From a bacterium (lineage in GTDB: Bacteria > Patescibacteriota > Dojkabacteria > JAOAGR01 > JBAXGO01), in the NCBI GenBank assembly GCA_037139335.1, contig JBAXGO010000001.1, forward strand, positions 4,503-68,502: a stretch of 64,000 bases of DNA. Direction: 5' to 3'. The notes under the pieces are model-generated. The model was given only the letters and a program-made list of their open reading frames with translations, was not told where the DNA came from and ran no database searches. Position numbers and translations under genes: made by a program. Position 1 is the first letter of the stretch, and the number at the start of each line of letters is the position of its first letter. This document shows, piece by piece, positions 1,144-26,815 of the stretch.

Positions 1144-1539
1144 ATGAAAAGTAATTTAAACAAAAAAATAAGTAATTTATTAGTATCTGCTGTTGTAATA
1201 TTCTTCACAGCAGCAGATATTGTTCAGGCTAAATGCGGTATTGTCGCAGATCCTTTGGACCCAAATTGTACAGGTACTCCATCACTTGGCGATTTGGTTG
1301 GAGGATTTATTCCGTTTATTCCTATCGCAGTTGGTGTATTATTATTTGGAATGATAACCGTTGGAGCAGTTCAGATTACTATTGCTGGTCCAAATGATGA
1401 AGCTAAGAAAAAAGGAATTCAAACTATTCAAAATGCCATTGTTGGTGCTGTAATATTGTTTGTTTCAGTAGGCATAGTTTCATTAATTGAAGCTATTTTT
1501 GGTGTCAAACTTTTATATGGAGTAAATATTGGAAAATGA
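1144..1539 (+). CDS. Small secreted two-TM protein, TrbC/VirB2-like (T4SS pilin-like), member A1 of the paralog array
   Basis: Signal peptide, then a Cys pair (KCG..DPNCTG), then TM1, a charged loop (NDEAKKKGIQTIQNAI) and TM2. This is the topology typical of VirB2/TrbC pilins. Confidence 0.55.
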   Translation: MKSNLNKKISNLLVSAVVIFFTAADIVQAKCGIVADPLDPNCTGTPSLGDLVGGFIPFIPIAVGVLLFGMITVGAVQITIAGPNDEAKKKGIQTIQNAIVGAVILFVSVGIVSLIEAIFGVKLLYGVNIGK

Positions 1540-1937
1540 TTAAAAAAAATATACAAAAATTTAGTTTAATGTTTTTTTCTTTATTCCTTCTATCATCTAA
1601 TGTTTTTGCCGATTCGGATTGTGTGAAAAATAACCAAGTCCCTTCGCTTTGGGATCCGAATTGTACTGGCAAAACACCATCTATTGGCGATATTATCGCA
1701 GGAATTGTCCCAATAATTCCTACCTTAGTAGGTGCTTTACTTTTTGGTGTACTAATTTGGGGTGGAATTCAGATTTTTAGTGCGAATGCCAATGAAGAGG
1801 CCAAGAAAAAAGGCATCAAAACTATACAAAATGCTATTACAGGAATTGTATTACTCTTTTTATCAATTGCAATTATTACAATTATTGAATCAATACTAGG
1901 TCAAAAAATATTATTTGGTGTCTTTGTAAATAAATAA
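1536..1937 (+). CDS. TrbC/VirB2-like pilin-like protein, paralog A2
   Basis: Close paralog of A1 with the same signal-Cys-TM-loop-TM layout (DPNCTG, EEAKKKGIKTIQNAI). Its start overlaps the A1 stop by 4 nt. Confidence 0.55.
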   Translation: MIKKNIQKFSLMFFSLFLLSSNVFADSDCVKNNQVPSLWDPNCTGKTPSIGDIIAGIVPIIPTLVGALLFGVLIWGGIQIFSANANEEAKKKGIKTIQNAITGIVLLFLSIAIITIIESILGQKILFGVFVNK

Positions 1938-1943
1938 AGATTT

Positions 1944-2720
1944 ATGAAAGTTTATAAAAATATAATCAAATTAAGTATATTTTTAATATTACTCTTTTCT
2001 TCATTTAATTTCGCATTTGCTGCTCCAGTGCCAACTACTACTACAGTTACTCCTATGCAATATGCGAAAACAACTCCATGTCCTAGAGTTGGTACTACAA
2101 ATAGTTCTGGAAGTGTTGTTACATACGATGAATACGAAAAATGTCTTGAAATTGAAAGTGGTGCAAATAAAATAAATGCGAGTGGTTTTTTTCCCAATTT
2201 TAATTTTAACGATATTATAGGTGTTGTAACTACAATATTATTAGCTTTACTAGTAATAATTTTAACATTCAAAATAGTGCTTGCCGCTTTTAAATGGGCA
2301 AATAATGATGGTCAAGATAAGAATAAGAAAGATGCTATTAAAAGTATTAGTAATGGAATTGTTGGTTTGATAATATCTTTTTCAGCTTATTTCGTTATAA
2401 TTATTATAAGAGGCTTTTTCAATATCGACACTCAGTTGATACAGTGTAGTAACCTGTATTTTAAAAATGCTACGTCTTATGAAAATAATTCTAGTGCTGC
2501 ATCGATAACGACATCAGAGTCAGAATTCAAAAAATGCATAGATTTAGCTGGTAAAACTAATGTATTATCAGATAGCACAAAATATTCTGGTTTTATATCA
2601 AATATTCAAAAAAATTGTTCACCAAAATATTATGAATATTTATCTTCTACAAAGGAAATAAAGGTTTATGATAATCAGAAACTTAATCAATGTTTTGCTG
2701 ATGAATTGAAAAAATTATGA
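1944..2720 (+). CDS. Pilin-like two-TM protein with a ~100-aa Cys-containing C-terminal extension, paralog B1
   Basis: Signal peptide and a Thr-rich N-terminal segment (PVPTTTTVTP). A TM-loop-TM core carries FKWANNDGQDKNKKDAIKSISNGIVG. The C-terminal domain has 4 conserved Cys and ends in QCFADELKKL. Confidence 0.5.
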   Translation: MKVYKNIIKLSIFLILLFSSFNFAFAAPVPTTTTVTPMQYAKTTPCPRVGTTNSSGSVVTYDEYEKCLEIESGANKINASGFFPNFNFNDIIGVVTTILLALLVIILTFKIVLAAFKWANNDGQDKNKKDAIKSISNGIVGLIISFSAYFVIIIIRGFFNIDTQLIQCSNLYFKNATSYENNSSAASITTSESEFKKCIDLAGKTNVLSDSTKYSGFISNIQKNCSPKYYEYLSSTKEIKVYDNQKLNQCFADELKKL

Positions 2721-3418
2721 AAAAAATAAGTAAATTTATAATAATATTATTAACATCTTTTACATTAGTAAATATTGTTTCTGCGGCTACTCCTTGTCCT
2801 GCAGGAGATCAATCAGCAGATTGTGTCTCAAATGGCTTTGGTTTTGATGCAATAGATCTTAGAAGATTCTTTCCAAGTTTATCTTTTAATGATGTAATTT
2901 CTAGTACGGCAACGATTATTTTAATAGGATTGGTGATATTATTTGGTTTTAGAATAATTCTTGCAGGTTTCAAATGGGTTAATAATGACGGTCAGGATAA
3001 AAGTAAAAAAGATGCATTGAAAGGAATTATTAATGGAGTTGTTGGTATTGCGATTACATTTTCAGCATATTTTATAGTTTTATTCGTAAGGTCTTTGACA
3101 GCTGGTAATGATCAGCTTGTAAATTGTGCTAATCTTTATTATCGTGATACCAATTCATACATTACTAATTATAATGCTGGGGTGGCAGATACTTTTGGAA
3201 ATGCATCAGAAGAATTTACAAGGTGTATGAAGTTAGCTGGCTGGGCAGATACACTATCTGCTAGTGGAAAATTTAGTACTTTTACCACGAATCTAGATAA
3301 TAATTGCAAACAATATCTTACTTCGTCTCCAAACTCGAGTGGAATTGTGAAAGGGATTGAGATTAAAGATAAAAATAATTTACAACAATGTTTTGTTAAT
3401 GAACTAAAGAAATTATGA
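2717..3418 (+). CDS. Pilin-like two-TM protein with a Cys-containing C-terminal extension, paralog B2
   Basis: Paralog of B1 with core loop FKWVNNDGQDKSKKDALKGIINGVVG, conserved Cys in the C-domain and the ending QCFVNELKKL. It overlaps the B1 stop by 4 nt. Confidence 0.5.
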   Translation: MKKISKFIIILLTSFTLVNIVSAATPCPAGDQSADCVSNGFGFDAIDLRRFFPSLSFNDVISSTATIILIGLVILFGFRIILAGFKWVNNDGQDKSKKDALKGIINGVVGIAITFSAYFIVLFVRSLTAGNDQLVNCANLYYRDTNSYITNYNAGVADTFGNASEEFTRCMKLAGWADTLSASGKFSTFTTNLDNNCKQYLTSSPNSSGIVKGIEIKDKNNLQQCFVNELKKL

Positions 3419-4104
3419 AAATAAAATCAATAAAATATATTTCCATTGTATCGTTAGGTTTGCTCGGGGCTTCTAGTATTTCAAATGCAGAAACGACTAC
3501 TTGCAAAGATAGTTTTGCTCCGAAGTTTATATGTGAAAAATTCGCAGATATTACTACAAATTTCACATTTGGTTCAGTGCTTGATATGTTTTTTTCTATA
3601 GCTATTGCGGCACTTGTTGTTTTTATCTTATTTCAAATTGTGAAGGCAATCTTCAAATGGGTCTCTAAATCTGGTGATGAAAAAGAACGATCAGGGGCAA
3701 TTAAATCAATCTCAAATGCAGTTGCCGCAGGTATTGCTTTATTAGTTCTATTATTCGTAGTCCCATTATTTACTGATTTATTAAATATTGGTGGTAAACC
3801 AAATCCAGCGTATGTCTGTTATTCGGCTACAAGTTCTACTATGACACAGGCTAATATAGATCAGGAGACAGGTGCCTTGAATTCTGGTGTTAGTGCTTCT
3901 GAATTATCTGGAGGCATCGCATATGAAGGCAAAGCAAAAGGCGGAACTAAGAATAATAAAACAGCAGATTTTATAACTTTAACTGCGGATAATAAAGACA
4001 CAGTGGATTTTTTGAGCACAAAAATGTATTGCAAGGACAAAGATACTGGTGATGAGTATAAAGATGGATATGTTGTTTTGAAGAGAGTTGGGATCAAAAA
4101 GTAG
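3415..4104 (+). CDS. Pilin-like two-TM protein with a C-terminal extension, paralog C1
   Basis: Signal peptide and a Cys pair (TTCKD..FICEKF). The TM-loop-TM core carries FKWVSKSGDEKERSGAIKSISNAVAAG, followed by a ~100-aa C-terminal domain with 2 Cys. Confidence 0.5.
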   Translation: MKIKSIKYISIVSLGLLGASSISNAETTTCKDSFAPKFICEKFADITTNFTFGSVLDMFFSIAIAALVVFILFQIVKAIFKWVSKSGDEKERSGAIKSISNAVAAGIALLVLLFVVPLFTDLLNIGGKPNPAYVCYSATSSTMTQANIDQETGALNSGVSASELSGGIAYEGKAKGGTKNNKTADFITLTADNKDTVDFLSTKMYCKDKDTGDEYKDGYVVLKRVGIKK

Positions 4105-4175
4105 TCAAATAGTGTATGGTATTGTATAATTAATGCTTTAGTTTTAATATATCTTAATTAATTTTTTACATATAT

Positions 4176-4865
4176 ATGAATAAGAATAGTATAAAGTATT
4201 CTGTAGCCGCAGGAGCTGTTTTAGTAGCTAGTACATCTGTTGCTCATGCTGAAGATATTAGTTGTGATGGTTCATTGGTTCCTCAAGTCTGCAAAATATT
4301 CGCAGGAGCAGGAAGTTTCTCAGTAAGTGGTATATTACAGTCAGTTTTTGCTGTAGTTATTGCTATACTCGTCATTTTTATATTATTCCAAATTGTCAAA
4401 GCCGTATTTGATTGGGTTGGCAAATCAGGTGATGAAAAAGCAAGAAGTGCTGCAATCAAATCAATTACAAATGCAGTAGTTGCAGGTATCGTATTATTAG
4501 TTGCAATCTTGATTGTTGTTGTAGGATCAAGTCTTTTGAACATTGGTACACCAGCCGTTAATTATGTTTGTGTTGCTTCATCAACTCTTCCTAGCGGAGC
4601 CGCAAATCTAACGGCAAGAGGTACATTACTTTCTGGCAATTTGAAAGAACTTCCTGATGTACAAGCTCAAGAAGGAGCAGGCGTAAACAATAAATGGAAT
4701 GAAGGTTCTGCTTATGATAAATATATTAAAGGAACTACTGGGGCTGATGAGGACGTAGTCTCAGCATTAAAGAAAGTAAAATGTGTTCAGACATCTGGTG
4801 AAAGTAGTGGTAAAGAATATTCACCTAATTACTGGGTTGTTGCTAAAGTAGGTTTGAAAAAGTAA
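4176..4865 (+). CDS. Pilin-like two-TM protein with a C-terminal extension, paralog C2
   Basis: Paralog of C1 (ISCDG..QVCKIF; FDWVGKSGDEKARSAAIKSITNAVVAG). The array ends in an intrinsic terminator at 4879-4920. Confidence 0.5.
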   Translation: MNKNSIKYSVAAGAVLVASTSVAHAEDISCDGSLVPQVCKIFAGAGSFSVSGILQSVFAVVIAILVIFILFQIVKAVFDWVGKSGDEKARSAAIKSITNAVVAGIVLLVAILIVVVGSSLLNIGTPAVNYVCVASSTLPSGAANLTARGTLLSGNLKELPDVQAQEGAGVNNKWNEGSAYDKYIKGTTGADEDVVSALKKVKCVQTSGESSGKEYSPNYWVVAKVGLKK

Positions 4866-4878
4866 ATTAAGTCTTTTT

Positions 4879-4920
4879 AATAGGTCTTGTACTGAGAGGT
4901 ATGAGACCTATTTGTTTTTT
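4879..4920 (+). terminator. Rho-independent terminator closing the pilin-like array
   Basis: Stem taggtct/agaccta followed by tttgtttttt. Confidence 0.6.
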
Positions 4921-4969: not shown

Positions 4970-6817
4970 ATGTTCAAACGTTTTAATGCCCAAAACGCTG
5001 ATGGAGAGCTGTATACTGCTTTGGATTTTTCTGGTTCAAATGCTTTTTTGTATTTTGCAAAAGATGGAGATATATCTATCTTGCGAAAATTTATTCAATT
5101 AAGCTGGGCTAGTACTTCTGAAGATGGTCTATCGCTAACACTAAATCTTAATTCGAGTGATCATACTATTTCTTCCACTCCTGATAATATTTATTTAGAT
5201 GAAAATGTTGCCAAAATTAGTGCCATGGAATCCTTTTATGGTATTGGATATTCGGATTATTCTAAATTATTTGTTATCACATATACACAGCTTTTGAATC
5301 TTGAACTAGGACGAATTCCTTTTCAACAATATTTAAATAGGTATGTCTTTCATAAACCAGATTCCAAATCTTATTATTCACCAGTTGAAGATATTTTTTA
5401 TGATATTGAGCAAGCCAGAAAATATAGTGGTGATAATTCAGCATCAACATTAAAAAAAGAAAAAAATGATATTTCTGAAAAATCTGAAATTTTAAGAAAA
5501 AAAATTAAAGATTTAGAAAATATAAATTTGGATAATGATATAGATGTAAATATTGATGAAAAAATAAATAATCTTGAAAAAAAATTAGGAGATCAAAAAA
5601 AACAAGATGAGTATGTTGGCCGTAAAGAAGTTTTGGTAGAAGAATTAAAAAGTATTAATGAAAAAATAAAACAATACGAGGTAGCTCTTAACAAAGTTTC
5701 AAAAGTTGATATTGATATGGTGAAATACAATAACTTTATGAGGTTAAATGTTCAGAGAGTAGAGAATGACTTATCTATGTTTCTATATCGTATTCGAGAA
5801 AGAGAAAAAGTCCTTTCAGATTTAGCTAATATCCATGTACAGTATCAAGCCTCTGATTCAAAACATTTGGCATATCTTCCGTTTATTATATTATTAATAA
5901 TATCTATAAGTGTTGGATTGACATTGAGCTTTATAGCAGATCCATTTGTTGGTGCTGTTTTAGGATCGATAATGTTAGTCTTAAGTTTGTTCTTTCTAAT
6001 ATTTTTCAAATCTTCTGGCAAAGTAAAGCCAAATGAATTAAGCCGAGATAAAGTATCGGCTATTGCAAATGAAATAGATGCTTTGAAATCAGCCAAGCAA
6101 AGGTATCTTCAAAATATGGGCTTTCAAAACGAAGATGATTATTTTGCTACGAAAGCACTTGTTAGAGCTTTGTTATTTCAAAAGGAAAATGATTTAGCCA
6201 AAATTCATGAGAAATTTGAAGGTAAAGAACTTAGTGATTATAAATATTTATATTCAGAAAAAAATAAAAAAATAGTAGATTTGCAGATTGAGATTGATAA
6301 ATTTGGGCCTATAATTTCTCCCGAAGAATATATTAGGAAAAAACGAGAGCTAGATATGCTCAAATTAGAAAAATCAGCAACTATTACTAATTATTCAGTT
6401 GAAGATAATTCCAAACAAATTGAAGAGCTTAAAAGAGAACTTGATACACTTCTTACGTCAAACAATGGAAATCTAGTAAATAATCCACTCGATGTTTATT
6501 TACGAATATTGCGAGAATATTTCGAAGATGAAAATATTCAGGCAAATAATGAGTATGTTCTTGATAATAAACAAATTAATTCATATGAAGAAAAGGTCGA
6601 GATGTTAATTATTCAAAGATATGCATATTTGATGTCCAATTTTCCTGATTCAAATCTTCCTATTTATCTAGAAGATCCTTTTGCTGGTGTCGAAAATAAA
6701 AATATTATCAATAAAATAATTAATTTTTGTTCAAAAAATAAACAAGTTATTCTAATATCTGAACATGATAATTATAAAGATTTAGGATTGAAAGTTTTAA
6801 ATCTTTCTTCTAATTAA
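4970..6817 (+). CDS. SMC/SbcC-like coiled-coil membrane protein with degenerate ATPase head motifs
   Basis: N-terminal domain with a Walker-A-like but non-canonical FSGSNAF. Long coiled coils (K/E/N-rich heptads) are interrupted by two TM helices (LAYLPFIILLIISISVGL..., AVLGSIMLVLSLFFLIFF). The C-terminal lobe has a Walker-B-like IYLEDPFAGVE and an H-loop-like QVILISEHDN. Confidence 0.45.
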   Translation: MFKRFNAQNADGELYTALDFSGSNAFLYFAKDGDISILRKFIQLSWASTSEDGLSLTLNLNSSDHTISSTPDNIYLDENVAKISAMESFYGIGYSDYSKLFVITYTQLLNLELGRIPFQQYLNRYVFHKPDSKSYYSPVEDIFYDIEQARKYSGDNSASTLKKEKNDISEKSEILRKKIKDLENINLDNDIDVNIDEKINNLEKKLGDQKKQDEYVGRKEVLVEELKSINEKIKQYEVALNKVSKVDIDMVKYNNFMRLNVQRVENDLSMFLYRIREREKVLSDLANIHVQYQASDSKHLAYLPFIILLIISISVGLTLSFIADPFVGAVLGSIMLVLSLFFLIFFKSSGKVKPNELSRDKVSAIANEIDALKSAKQRYLQNMGFQNEDDYFATKALVRALLFQKENDLAKIHEKFEGKELSDYKYLYSEKNKKIVDLQIEIDKFGPIISPEEYIRKKRELDMLKLEKSATITNYSVEDNSKQIEELKRELDTLLTSNNGNLVNNPLDVYLRILREYFEDENIQANNEYVLDNKQINSYEEKVEMLIIQRYAYLMSNFPDSNLPIYLEDPFAGVENKNIINKIINFCSKNKQVILISEHDNYKDLGLKVLNLSSN

Positions 6818-7677
6818 AGATTCTTCAAAACAATTTGAGTCTTTGGGGTTGTTTTTCCTTTCTTAATCTTTGTATACTTGATGGTGCTGGAAAGGTTCTT
6901 GTGGCCAACTATTTGTGATAGTTTCAAAATATTTTCACCGTTTTTAATATGGTGATATATAAAAGTATTTCGAAGATCGTTGACTGTTGCATTCGTTATC
7001 TTGGCTTTTTTCATTGCTCGGCTGATATATGTGCGAGCGTTTCTTATGATAATTGGTTTCCCTGCTTTAGTGACAAAAACATAACTGTTCTTCTGTGTAT
7101 TTGGTCTGACATCAAAATACATTGAGATTGCATCAGTTGCTGCTGAATTTAATGGAACTGTACGAGATGGGGTGCTTTCATTTTTTTCGATTCTTACTGC
7201 ATAAGGTTTCGTTTTAGATTTATAGCATATATCGCTAACTTTTAGCCTACATAATTCTCCAATTCTAATGCCAGTTTGTAAAAGAAGTTCTATCATTGCA
7301 TAAGTTCTAATATCTTTCAAACAAGAATTCCTAAGCTTAGTATATTCTTCTTTTGTTAAATATCTAGGAGCTTTTTCTTTAATTTTTGGATGATGTATGT
7401 TTTCTGAAGGATCTTTTTTAATATAATTTTGCTCCTTCATATGTTTGAAGAATGACCGTATACTGTTTATTTTTCTTGAAATACTTTTTAAATCGTAGTT
7501 TGCTTTTTTTAAAATTGCAATGTATTTTTTTATTCCATCTTCATCTACATCTTTCAATTTAAGTACTTGTAGCGTGGTGAATAATTGTTCAATGTCTTTT
7601 ACATACGCTTGTACAGTATATGCGGATTTTCCGTTCTCTTCTAGAAAGTTTTTATATTTGTTTATATAAGTCTTCAC
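6814..7677 (-). CDS. xerD: Tyrosine site-specific recombinase, XerC/XerD-like (phage integrase family)
   Basis: N-terminal SAM-like domain (AYTVQAYVKDIEQLF). The C-terminal catalytic domain has the R...H..R...Y residues (LRNTF, VGHKNLSSTIKYTKI). Its stop overlaps the stop of the convergent upstream gene. Confidence 0.75.
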   Translation of the reverse strand: MKTYINKYKNFLEENGKSAYTVQAYVKDIEQLFTTLQVLKLKDVDEDGIKKYIAILKKANYDLKSISRKINSIRSFFKHMKEQNYIKKDPSENIHHPKIKEKAPRYLTKEEYTKLRNSCLKDIRTYAMIELLLQTGIRIGELCRLKVSDICYKSKTKPYAVRIEKNESTPSRTVPLNSAATDAISMYFDVRPNTQKNSYVFVTKAGKPIIIRNARTYISRAMKKAKITNATVNDLRNTFIYHHIKNGENILKLSQIVGHKNLSSTIKYTKIKKGKTTPKTQIVLKNL

Positions 7678-8195: not shown

Positions 8196-8270
8196 CGCGG
8201 GGTAGAGCAGTGGCAGCTCGTCAGGCTCATAACCTGAAGGTCGTTGGTTCGAATCCAACCCCCGCAACCA
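8196..8270 (+). tRNA. Initiator tRNA-fMet (CAU)
   Basis: Cloverleaf with anticodon loop ctCATaa. The 5' CGCGGGG and 3' CCCCGCAACCA give a C1-A72 mismatch. The sequence is near-identical in pattern to bacterial initiator tRNA, and CCA is encoded. Confidence 0.85.
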
Positions 8271-8413
8271 TTATTCCTCAGAATCAATTTTCAATAAAAT
8301 TACTTATTCAATTCGTTTATTAATATTGGAACTGCCAATTATAAAAATATTCAGTATCTAATCTTTTATAACTTAAAAAATTCTCGATAAATTGTAGATA
8401 GACCATTATTTTT

Positions 8414-8423
8414 ATGTTAAAAT
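8414..8423 (+). promoter_or_regulatory. Extended -10 element (TGtTAAAAT) upstream of the elongator tRNA-Met
   Basis: TGnTAAAAT lies about 10 nt before the tRNA 5' end. Confidence 0.45.
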
Positions 8424-8432
8424 ACCCCTGCT

Positions 8433-8505
8433 GGCGACGTAGCTCAGGGGTTAGAGCATTGGACTCATAAGCCAAGGGTCGGTGGTTCAAATCCACCCGT
8501 CGTCA
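8433..8505 (+). tRNA. Elongator tRNA-Met (CAU)
   Basis: GGCGACGTAGCTCAG...ACTCATAA...GGTTCAAATCC...CGTCGTCA closely resembles elongator tRNA-Met. CCA is not encoded. Confidence 0.8.
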
Positions 8506-8598
8506 CTTTAGAAAACTTTAACCTAGCTGTCTTCGTACTTTATAAGCTAATATTGTAGAATTCTTGATGGCTCTTTTTACTTTAACATTGAAATTATT

Positions 8599-16889: not shown

Positions 16890-17028
16890 CACGATGCTTT
16901 ATCAAAACTAAAGCGTTTTTCAATAAGGTTTTCTGATTGAAATCCCAAATGATCATTAACAATCTACAAGTGGTAAGAGTGCAATTTGAAACATAATTGC
17001 AAAAATATTTTTTCGTCAATTTATACTA

Positions 17029-18603
<1,575 letters not shown>

Positions 18604-19900: not shown

Positions 19901-19977
19901 GGGCGATTAGCTCAGCTGGTTAGAGCGCAGTCCTGATAAGACTGAGGTCCTTGGTTCGAGTCCAAGACCGCCCACCA
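19901..19977 (+). tRNA. tRNA-Ile (GAU)
   Basis: Cloverleaf with anticodon loop ctGATaa and a TTCGAGT T-loop. CCA is encoded. Confidence 0.9.
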
Positions 19978-20055
19978 TTTGTCAGTTAACAGTTTAAAAT
20001 TAAAAATTAAGAGTTTTGGCACAGTATTCAGAAAAACAACTTTTAATTGATTTTG

Positions 20056-20131
20056 GGGCCCTTAGCTTAGCTGGTAGAGCGCCTCGTTTGCAACGAGGAG
20101 GTCAGGAGTTCGAATCTCCTAGGGTCCACCA
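20056..20131 (+). tRNA. tRNA-Ala (UGC)
   Basis: Anticodon loop ttTGCaa and the G3:U70 identity pair. CCA is encoded. Confidence 0.9.
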
Positions 20132-21764: not shown

Positions 21765-22967
21765 TTAATCTACCCACACTGGAGTGTCAATTTCTGCCCA
21801 ATTATAAAGCCATTTTACATTTGTTAATGGTGTCCTGATGCAACCTAAACTTCCTCTGGTGTGATAGTCCATTCCTCCGTAATTAGTTGGAGTAGGGGTG
21901 TCGTGAATTCCATAATCTTGGTAAAAAGGCATCCAATAATTTACTAATACATCATAATTATGACCACTTGTGTCGACTCCTCTCAGATGTTCTTGTTCTT
22001 TTTTTTGAAATATCGCGAATTTACCTGTTACTGTTGGGGATAAATCTTTTCCAGTAGTTACTACTGTTGTAAAAACTGGAACTCCATACTCATATGCGTA
22101 CATCTTTTGATCAGCAATACTGATGTATATGAATTTTGGTGCGTTGTTTTTTGCGGTTGGAGCCTGAACGTTCTTTGCTTGATTATCTTTCTTTTGTTGC
22201 TCAATTTGTTTTTCTAATTCTTGTGCGGAAGATAATTGTGCAGATAAGTTAGGCGTATACACTGTTTTTACATCACTATATGCTATTGTTTTACCTTTCC
22301 ATTTGGTGAGTAAGTCAGAAACTTTCGATTTGTAATCTGTTAATGATGTTGCGATATTTTCTTTGGTTGGTACTGTTGAAAAATATTTTGCAAGTCTATT
22401 GGCTTCTGTTTCGTTAGTAAGTAATTCGTTGTATAGATTAATTTCTTTTGAAAAAGATAATTCAACTGCTAATTTTACGTCTAATTCGTAAACAGTGAAC
22501 GTATTAATATTAGGAATTGGTATTGAAGGGTTATTTAAAGCTTGTTTTAGTGAAGTATATTGGCTTTTTATCTCTTCATAACTTGGCAATTCTGTAGCTT
22601 CTGGCAAGCTCAAATTTTGTTCGATTTTATTTAATGTTTGTAATGTATTTTCTTTATAGTAATTTTTGTTATTAATTTCGATATCTTTCTTGTAATTTGA
22701 AAGTTCAGAATTAATGGACTTTAATTCGAAGATATATTTAATATTATTAATTTTATTTTTTGCTTCGCTCATAGCGACTTTTATTTCAGAATATTTATTA
22801 GAGTCAACATCCTTAATAAGGCTGATTGCAGATTCTATAGAATTAATAGAACTTGTTGCCTTATTGTTTTCGCTAATAAAGAACCATATGAAAGTTCCTA
22901 ATATTGTGACTACTATTAATACAATAGTAAGAAATGTGAATAATAGGATTGTTTTTATGTTTTTCAT
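21765..22967 (-). CDS. L,D-transpeptidase (YkuD domain) with an N-terminal TM and a coiled-coil region
   Basis: C-terminal YkuD catalytic motif (YGIHDTP...GSLGCIRTP). N-terminal membrane anchor and a long coiled coil. Confidence 0.75.
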   Translation of the reverse strand: MKNIKTILLFTFLTIVLIVVTILGTFIWFFISENNKATSSINSIESAISLIKDVDSNKYSEIKVAMSEAKNKINNIKYIFELKSINSELSNYKKDIEINNKNYYKENTLQTLNKIEQNLSLPEATELPSYEEIKSQYTSLKQALNNPSIPIPNINTFTVYELDVKLAVELSFSKEINLYNELLTNETEANRLAKYFSTVPTKENIATSLTDYKSKVSDLLTKWKGKTIAYSDVKTVYTPNLSAQLSSAQELEKQIEQQKKDNQAKNVQAPTAKNNAPKFIYISIADQKMYAYEYGVPVFTTVVTTGKDLSPTVTGKFAIFQKKEQEHLRGVDTSGHNYDVLVNYWMPFYQDYGIHDTPTPTNYGGMDYHTRGSLGCIRTPLTNVKWLYNWAEIDTPVWVD

Positions 22968-23561: not shown

Positions 23562-26680
<3,119 letters not shown>

Positions 26681-26815
26681 ACAAATTTACGAATTTTTGC
26701 AAAAATTAGCCTGTTCAGTTTCAAAGGAATATATACTGAATTATTAGTGACAAATTAATAATTTAGTGATATACTCCCAGAGTGTTCATACGACAGTTAG
26801 TAATGCTGACTGTTG

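Follow-up and report, generated by a model that had tools for sequence, protein, structure and literature searches.

A probable degenerate Rad50/YhaN-like protein with a transmembrane apex beside a VirB2-like pilin array in a Dojkabacteria genome

The stretch of DNA analyzed here, a 64-kb window of contig JBAXGO010000001.1 from a member of the Dojkabacteria, contains an array of VirB2-like pilin genes that is followed directly by an open reading frame (ORF) of 615 aa. The locus raises the question of what kind of protein this ORF encodes and what it does beside the pilins. A preliminary description had taken it for an SMC/Rad50-family scaffold with a dead or altered ATPase head that was converted into a membrane-inserted protein. 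The comparisons reported here indicate that it is very probably a degenerate Rad50/YhaN-type protein. For the locus as a whole, the explanation that we favor, with fair though far from full confidence, is that the protein is a pseudo-ATPase scaffold of a Patescibacterial type IV secretion system (T4SS) cluster and that its ancestor was an Mre11–Rad50-like machine tethered to the membrane. The ORF starts with an ATG codon, and an identical Met start is present in four homologues (~50% identity). The window protein and these four homologues make up a subfamily of five sequences (alignment A1), in which the head motifs are degenerate. The predicted regions of the protein were assigned from alignments, hydropathy, and models from AlphaFold2 (AF2):

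4970..6817, + strand: whole ORF, 615 aa, predicted degenerate membrane-anchored Rad50/YhaN-like protein
4970..5449, + strand: N-lobe (aa 1–160), presumed N-terminal half of an ABC-type head, strand-strand-strand-loop-helix in both AF2 runs
5450..5842, + strand: N-arm helices (aa 161–291) of an antiparallel coiled coil, AF2 helices 161–185, 191–251, and 261–291
5867..6013, + strand: transmembrane (TM) hairpin (aa 300–348) at the coiled-coil apex, from Kyte-Doolittle hydropathy and AF2 helices 303–322 and 325–346
6038..6466, + strand: C-arm helices (aa 357–499), five segments in AF2
6140..6157, + strand: YFATKA motif (aa 391–396, FFxxKA), conserved in all three family forms (consensus of alignments A4 and A5)
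6320..6355, + strand: PEEYIRKKRELD motif (aa 451–462), the most conserved stretch of the family, with Tyr-454, Arg-459, and Asp-462 invariant in alignment A7
6485..6790, + strand: C-lobe (aa 506–607) of an ABC-type head, matching the canonical C-lobe in a C-lobe-only hhalign comparison (97.7%, E 1.8e-12)

The window protein itself has no match in Pfam or NCBIfam even at E ≤ 1, and this includes PF13514. A phmmer search of the PDB with the window protein gave nothing usable, and with the A1 profile the PDB yielded only matches at E ~0.04, to the Walker B/H-loop of ABC transporters and to the Rad50 coiled coil. An exhaustive search of 1.84 billion cluster representatives with the same profile revealed 91 clusters at E ≤ 1e-3, which fall into two groups. 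Members of the first are ~700 aa long and have a consensus with GxNEAGKST, TAFIxQ, LSxGTVDQ, LILDDPF, and QIILFTH. All 26 of these canonical relatives match SMC_N, AAA_27, AAA_23, or AAA_15, and AAA_27 (PF13514) is matched by every one of them. The second group consists of short forms of ~460–590 aa that carry no head motifs and have no Pfam match. Profile-profile comparison with hhalign aligns A1 to the canonical group over aa 68–607, the Q-loop region included (99.9%, E 3.6e-36), and to the short group over aa 189–599 (99.9%, E 7.6e-34). These matches are not merely compositional because motifs outside the coiled coil are shared, namely YFATKA/FFTxKA, PEEYIRKKRELD/PEEYLRKRRELD, LEDPF/LDDPF, and QVILISEH/QIILFTH. 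The canonical group in turn matches Rad50 structures in the PDB (E 3.9e-31) and Rad50 in NCBIfam (1.1e-21).

The SMC/Rad50-family scaffold named in the preliminary description is thus borne out by the alignment to canonical Rad50-like relatives. The family profiles that it recommended do not find the window protein directly; they are reached through relatives that match SMC_N, AAA_27, AAA_23, or AAA_15. The architecture had not been recognized as that of a described family, but it belongs to the described, little-studied YhaN/SbcE-type family. The link between the family of the Candidate Phyla Radiation (CPR) and Firmicute YhaN consists of the C-terminal head only (98.8% by hhalign), together with the shared AAA_27 matches. 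In a crude neighbor-joining tree of the shared core, the subfamily is placed beside two short forms that keep DDPF; since the tree carries no support values, we draw no conclusion from it on the number of independent losses. One further canonical member is encoded on the 1.9-kb contig JAGQJW010000119.1 (locus L013), from a metagenome-assembled genome labelled Nanoarchaeota, and shares 27% identity with P0008 over 547 aa. Either DPANN archaea have a homologue or the contig was binned wrongly.

The window protein has the arrangement that characterizes the SMC/Rad50 superfamily, in which both termini contribute to a bipartite ABC head and an antiparallel coiled coil lies between them. Heptad (3.5-residue) periodicity in the N-arm is above that of shuffled sequences (z 3.4; 7 of 1000 shuffles reach the value), as expected from the heptad-rich coil described earlier, but the C-arm, with its five helices, shows no excess over shuffles (z 0.9). 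The residues that are most conserved across the whole family sit in the C-arm. Lys-395 and Ala-396 of the YFATKA motif are invariant in alignment A7, and the PEEYIRKKRELD motif was the search pattern by which the Dojkabacteria and Saccharibacteria loci discussed below were recovered.

At the apex of the coiled coil, hydropathy and AF2 agree on the two adjacent TM helices that had been noticed in the middle of the coil. They form a hairpin of hydrophobic helices, aa ~300–322 and 327–348, with a turn of four residues between them and a Lys-rich stretch after them. The CxxC zinc hook of Rad50 and SbcC proper is not present. Every relative examined, whether canonical, degenerate, or short, has a hairpin at the corresponding position; this includes all 26 aligned motif-intact canonical relatives, and a YhaN-like protein from Gracilibacillus that was found by profile has one at aa 453–490. 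The hairpin therefore appears from these sequences to be ancestral to the family, and the idea that a scaffold was specially converted into a membrane-inserted form in the window lineage does not hold. An SMC architecture with a membrane apex already exists in the described family, as the canonical relatives, the Gracilibacillus protein, and SbcE share a hydrophobic center. What is new is the degeneration of the P-loop and signature together with the loss of the nuclease, and the fixed place of the family in a Patescibacterial T4SS cluster, including an intact Mre11–Rad50-like version.

The positions that correspond to the ATPase motifs of the canonical relatives were located with MAFFT and hhalign:

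5027..5047, + strand: FSGSNAF (aa 20–26), strand ahead of the P-loop, aligned with FSDGVNV/FxxGxNV of canonical relatives
5054..5077, + strand: FAKDGDIS (aa 29–36), P-loop equivalent in the MAFFT alignment to GxNEAGKST
5279..5290, + strand: TYTQ (aa 104–107), Q-loop equivalent, aligned to TAFIxQ by hhalign and MAFFT
6575..6595, + strand: INSYEEK (aa 536–542), site of the deleted signature motif LSxGTxDQ by MAFFT and hhalign
6662..6694, + strand: IYLEDPFAGVE (aa 565–575), Walker B and D-loop equivalent, aligned to LILDDPFVTFD
6743..6766, + strand: QVILISEH (aa 592–599), H-loop equivalent, aligned to QIILFTH

The strings FSGSNAF, IYLEDPFAGVE, and QVILISEH quoted in the preliminary description are all present, and there is indeed no LSGG. 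Its reading of FSGSNAF as a non-canonical Walker A is misplaced, however, because this string forms the strand ahead of the P-loop, and its Gly and Ser are not constant across the subfamily. In the alignment, canonical NEAGKST lies opposite AKDGDIS (aa 30–36), so that GKST becomes GD[IV][SA]; Gly-33 and Asp-34 are invariant in all five members. A Walker A sequence of the form GxxGxGK[ST] is thus lacking, and the equivalent site, by positional alignment, reads [FYT]A..GD[IV][SA]. As AKDGDIS stands opposite NEAGKST and Gly-33 and Asp-34 do not vary, the P-loop Lys would correspond to an Asp and the Mg-ligand Ser to Ile or Val. Opposite the signature motif LSxGTVDQ there is a gap of ~10 residues, which leaves I[NS]xY[ED][EQ]K and neither LSGG nor LSxGT. 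The remaining motifs are kept in 5/5 members: TYTQ, L[ED]DPF, and [ST]EH align to the canonical Q-loop, Walker B, and H-loop, and the residues Thr-106, Gln-107, Asp-569, Pro-570, Phe-571, Gln-592, Glu-598, and His-599 are invariant in the subfamily. The acidic pair of Walker B had been described as having its Glu and Asp swapped; in fact the family consensus is DD (LILDDPF), which one subfamily member also has, and the window protein has ED.

ABC ATPases require both the P-loop Lys with the Mg-ligand Ser/Thr and the signature motif, from which the ATP sandwich dimer is built. With the P-loop Lys and Ser replaced and the signature deleted, ATP binding and ATP-driven engagement of the heads should be impossible. 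We infer that ATPase activity has been lost, in agreement with the earlier suggestion of an inactivated ATPase.

The gene lies directly after the pilin-like array and converges on a tyrosine recombinase gene, as first described; the two neighbors match PF18895 and PF00589, respectively. The features on the two sides of the ORF are:

1144..4865, + strand: six VirB2-like pilin paralogues, the conserved upstream neighbor (Pfam PF18895, T4SS_pilin)
4879..4912, + strand: putative terminator-like 15-bp hairpin with a T-run, located after the pilin array and ahead of the ORF, from a consensus scan
6814..7677, − strand: Xer-type tyrosine recombinase, convergent neighbor (PF00589, E 2.6e-31; PF02899)

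All six upstream ORFs match PF18895, and two pass its gathering score. The pilins are divergent: two are short (131 and 133 aa), and four are long (229–258 aa) with Cys-containing C-terminal extensions. The identical six-gene order is found in L016, with 49–68% identity.

Twenty related loci were mapped by BLAST and hidden Markov model searches. They define a conserved Patescibacterial cluster in Dojkabacteria/WS6 and Saccharibacteria, the 5' part of which is [S15-PNPase] - 4–7 VirB2-like pilins - [Mre11/SbcD-like phosphoesterase] - SMC-like TM protein. The 3' part continues with SpoIID, a 2-TM protein of ~200 aa, DUF5657, a protein of ~670–820 aa, SmpB, and a DUF87/HerA-type ATPase of ~780 aa. 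This downstream block, from SpoIID through the DUF87/TraD-like ATPase, occurs in most loci:

L009, 10006–17354: accompanying SpoIID-to-ATPase block
L001, 11835–19854: accompanying SpoIID-to-ATPase block
L012, 9111–16432: accompanying SpoIID-to-ATPase block

The ATPase of the block has an N-terminal TM region, and its TraD/VirD4/CedD-like matches are below cutoff. The ~200-aa protein has a weak bPH_2 match, DUF5657 has two TM segments, and the 670–820-aa protein has no matches. A VirB6 label considered for this last neighbor (669–820 aa) was dropped because it contains only one strongly hydrophobic segment. In most loci seen, smpB is embedded in the block, and a small ORF lies between SmpB and the ATPase.

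The slot after the pilins is filled in three ways, by a canonical ATPase, by the dead-head form of 600–660 aa (the window, L001, and L002-4/L016), or by a short form (L009, L012, L014, and L019-21). An Mre11/SbcD-like gene (NCBIfam Mre11 1.1e-24, SbcD 2.3e-21) lies directly upstream in 6/6 informative canonical loci and in 0/9 non-canonical loci. In Dojkabacteria/WS6 an intact Mre11/Rad50-like pair is set between the pilin array and SpoIID of the T4SS-type cluster:

L007, 2550–6058: Mre11/SbcD-like gene and TM-hairpin Rad50-like ATPase
L010, 6163–9455: Mre11/SbcD-like gene and TM-hairpin Rad50-like ATPase
L011, 6334–9551: Mre11/SbcD-like gene and TM-hairpin Rad50-like ATPase
L015, 5611–8831: Mre11/SbcD-like gene and TM-hairpin Rad50-like ATPase

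The ATPase gene at the last of these loci (WS6 OLB20) is split into ORFs of 433 and 255 aa. A pilin array is found directly upstream of the family gene in the window and in L001, L002/L016, L009, L012, L014, L020, L007/8, and L011, and a VirB4-like ATPase is found within ~5–8 kb in L001, L009, and L012. Within the subfamily of the window protein, the array is upstream in 3/3 lineages (L001, L002-4, and L016 share the array of the window), which supports the conserved adjacency for which a test had been proposed. The cluster is broken right after the gene in the window and in L002/L016, where Xer, FtsB, FtsH, and PolA come next. In L001 the rest of the cluster is present in inverted orientation, and the gene is still beside the pilins. 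In all of these rearranged loci the break falls after the gene and never between the gene and the pilins.

From this synteny, a role of the window protein as a T4SS scaffold can be proposed tentatively, at somewhat less than even confidence. The ancestral and still extant form, that of ~700 aa in Dojkabacteria/WS6, would combine a canonical ATPase head with a co-encoded Mre11/SbcD-like nuclease. In the window lineage the nuclease gene would have been lost, GKST would have changed to GD[IV][SA], and the signature would have been deleted. The arms (aa ~161–291 and 357–499) are predicted to pair with each other within one molecule to form an antiparallel coiled coil, with the TM hairpin (aa 300–348) entering the cytoplasmic membrane from the inside at the apex. 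An N-in/C-in topology is suggested by the positive-inside rule and by the lack of a signal peptide. The N-lobe (aa 1–160) and the C-lobe (aa 506–607) would then meet in the cytoplasm as a pseudo-head ~130 helical residues away from the membrane. Such a protein would undergo no ATP-driven cycle and would serve the T4SS/pilin apparatus as a static scaffold or adaptor between membrane and cytoplasm rather than as a motor, with the joints of the coiled coil and the pseudo-head as binding surfaces. The most likely partner-binding sites are predicted at aa 391–396 and 451–462, where helices start just after interruptions of the coil.

Several observations weigh against a function in the T4SS. Upstream pilins are not detectable in four relatives, both short-form and canonical (L010, L015, L019, and L021). 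Housekeeping genes (S15, PNPase, and SmpB) are interleaved in the cluster, and synteny in small genomes may therefore not reflect function. The last pilin gene and the ORF are 104 nt apart, and the terminator-like hairpin in this spacer separates the ORF from the array. The homologous spacer in L002 is 38 nt long, so that transcriptional coupling may vary between lineages. The window lacks the VirB4-like part of the cluster; a tblastn search of the 64 kb found no SpoIID, VirB4-like, or Metallophos homologue. A survey of Patescibacterial T4SS (PMC12102498) does not list a protein of this type, and SMC, Rad50, Mre11, SpoIID, and coiled are absent from it as terms. Finally, in the Saccharibacterium S. 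epibionticum, which has been studied by transposon sequencing and in which the T4SS (SEML1_0006-0019) is essential (PMC10633639), Hsp20 follows the essential pilin array and no gene of the window type lies beside it. The presence of Hsp20 in that place indicates that the window-type protein is not a core or universal T4SS subunit.

The interleaved housekeeping genes, the four loci with no upstream pilins, the terminator-like hairpin, and the arrangement in S. epibionticum would also fit a relic of a membrane-tethered Mre11–Rad50-like system for DNA repair or end handling. In that case the protein would keep a DNA- or membrane-organizing role, and its link to the pilins would be conserved gene order. 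The canonical relatives are Rad50/Mre11-like, and in B. subtilis SbcE (YhaN) and its Mre11-like partner SbcF (YhaO) act in double-strand-break repair and transformation, both accumulating at the DNA-uptake pole of competent cells (PMC2811018). However, the slot between the pilins and the SpoIID-to-VirB4-like block is kept in Dojkabacteria and Saccharibacteria through three states of degeneration, the rearrangements in the subfamily never part the gene from the pilins, and repair is hard to picture for a protein that has neither ATPase motifs nor a nuclease. We consider such a relic unlikely.

The assignment of the N-lobe as half of a head is the most vulnerable part of the structural argument, and the N-terminal 160 residues could in principle be an unrelated replacement domain, so that the protein would have half a head and the Lys-to-Asp reading would be meaningless. 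Compared alone with the canonical N-lobe, the region gives no significant hhalign match (0.3%, E 0.21), and no Pfam or PDB sequence match covers it. When AF2 was run with subfamily sequences only, the predicted local distance difference test (pLDDT) score was below 50 for aa 1–37 and 94–140; a confident head, in a model with pLDDT 83.6, appeared only when canonical homologues had been added to the alignment. Because of the insignificant N-lobe comparison and the unconfident subfamily-only model, the P-loop equivalence is positional and topological, and the Lys-to-Asp equivalence is not claimed as proven at the sequence level. Against a replacement domain, MAFFT sets Asn-9, Gly-12, Gly-33, and Trp-46 on conserved canonical positions, the full-length hhalign match takes in the Q-loop region from aa 68, and the order strand-strand-strand-helix-strand is identical in both AF2 runs. 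A replacement domain is quite improbable in our judgment.

The invariant Gln of the Q-loop, acidic pair of Walker B, and His of the H-loop might suggest a protein that is still an ATPase with a non-canonical nucleotide site. This is very improbable, as an invariant Asp would take the place of the P-loop Lys and Ile or Val that of the Mg-ligand Ser/Thr, and the signature motif for the ATP sandwich dimer is deleted. That the gene is simply decaying on its way to loss, as the shorter, nearly headless forms in other lineages might suggest, is hardly credible, because all five sequences, which come from different samples, have an intact frame of 602–657 aa and share 169 invariant positions at ~50% identity, and because conservation is higher in the degenerate head than in the coils. 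The N-lobe has the highest conservation of any subfamily region (58% identity, 37% invariant), which speaks against decay and for a non-catalytic function that has been kept, and the subfamily comparison indicates that the window protein is under purifying selection.

The pseudo-ATPase scaffold that we favor has a close counterpart in SbcE/YhaN (Pfam AAA_27), with which it shares a head of the SMC/Rad50 type, a pair of long heptad arms, and a hydrophobic center without a hinge or zinc hook; the central domain of SbcE has been described as unique, hydrophobic, and insoluble (PMC2811018). The canonical Patescibacterial relatives resemble the YhaO/YhaN pair in matching AAA_27 and in having an Mre11/SbcD-like gene directly upstream. 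In contrast to SbcE/YhaN, the window protein is 615 rather than ~950 aa long, has no Pfam match, carries GD[IV][SA], lacks the signature, has no nuclease neighbor, and is placed in a pilin/T4SS cluster. With Rad50/SbcC it shares an antiparallel coiled coil that emerges from the head, and its canonical relatives match Rad50. It differs from Rad50/SbcC in the TM hairpin in place of the CxxC zinc hook, the loss of the ATP-binding and signature motifs, the lack of an Mre11/SbcD partner, and the much shorter arms. Patescibacterial T4SS are defined by VirB2 arrays (2–11 genes) together with VirB4 (PMC12102498; PMC10633639), and the components listed include VirB1, VirB2, VirB3, VirB6, VirB8, TrsD, and others (PMC12102498). 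Relative to the CPR T4SS cluster (VirB4, VirB3/PrgI, VirB6, TrsD, and VirB2-like arrays), the gene comes directly after a VirB2-like array of four to seven genes, and in relatives it lies a few kb from the DUF87/TraD-like ATPase.

A broader proposal, possible but doubtful at present, is that the Patescibacterial T4SS cluster ancestrally held a membrane-tethered Mre11–Rad50-type module, which is intact in Dojkabacteria, and that the window protein and the short forms are structural subunits that have outlived it. If so, the T4SS would handle DNA at the membrane, for example to take up host DNA and process it as a source of nucleotides. The function of the Patescibacterial T4SS has been called completely unknown, although the system is essential in the single species tested, and acquisition of DNA or nucleotides has been suggested (PMC11665869; PMC10633639). 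A Rad50/Mre11-like pair with a TM apex in a fixed T4SS slot would be a concrete candidate for DNA handling. That the protein has repeatedly been reduced, to pseudo-ATPases and to forms without a head, suggests an independent function for the part of the coiled coil near the membrane. For work on SMC proteins, the family would offer a natural series from active ATPase to dead head to no head in one orthologous slot, and it suggests that a membrane anchor can take the place of a zinc hook or hinge in more than one phylum. Should the T4SS link be mere gene order, the protein would be a lineage-restricted pseudoenzyme of modest interest.

Lamassu LmuB, Wadjet JetC, and retron PtuA have no TM hairpin and keep their ATPase motifs, and the reverse applies to the window protein. 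The PADLOC match to LmuB (E 0.0031, 13.7 bits) is confined to the coiled coil, and the gene has no defense-island neighbors, effector nuclease, or kleisin and is located on the core chromosome. A Lamassu-like defense system was ruled out because the match is weak and at the level of the coiled coil and the context is not one of defense.

The window as a whole belongs to the core chromosome of a CPR-like bacterium with low GC, and its GC content is uniform. A tblastn search against plasmids and phages found nothing, which suggests that no known mobile element carries the window gene. The recombinase gene and the stop codon of the ORF overlap by 4 nt, and this junction is the exact end of synteny with L001 and L009. 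The order Xer-FtsB-FtsH-PolA is repeated in L002 and L016, and since these share the junction, the rearrangement is older than the split of those lineages. The Xer-type recombinase thus marks the break in synteny and lies outside the system. An integrase-associated island was ruled out, as the recombinase is Xer-like and stands beside FtsB, FtsH, and PolA in relatives too, and the GC content is uniform.

Other genes in the window include those for PNPase, FtsB, FtsH, PolA, a Clp-type AAA+ ATPase, Rho, ComEC, and a PBP, as well as an unlinked rRNA set. In the latter, the 16S gene (17022–18603) with tRNA-Ile/Ala (19901–20131) is separated by ~3.4 kb from the 23S gene (23562–26684), and the gap holds ORFs, among them a YkuD L,D-transpeptidase on the reverse strand (21765–22967). 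The 23S match spans 3123 nt compared with a model of 2925 nt, ~200 nt extra. A pair of tRNA-Met (CAT) genes, spaced by 160 nt, is located between ftsB and ftsH (8196–8506).

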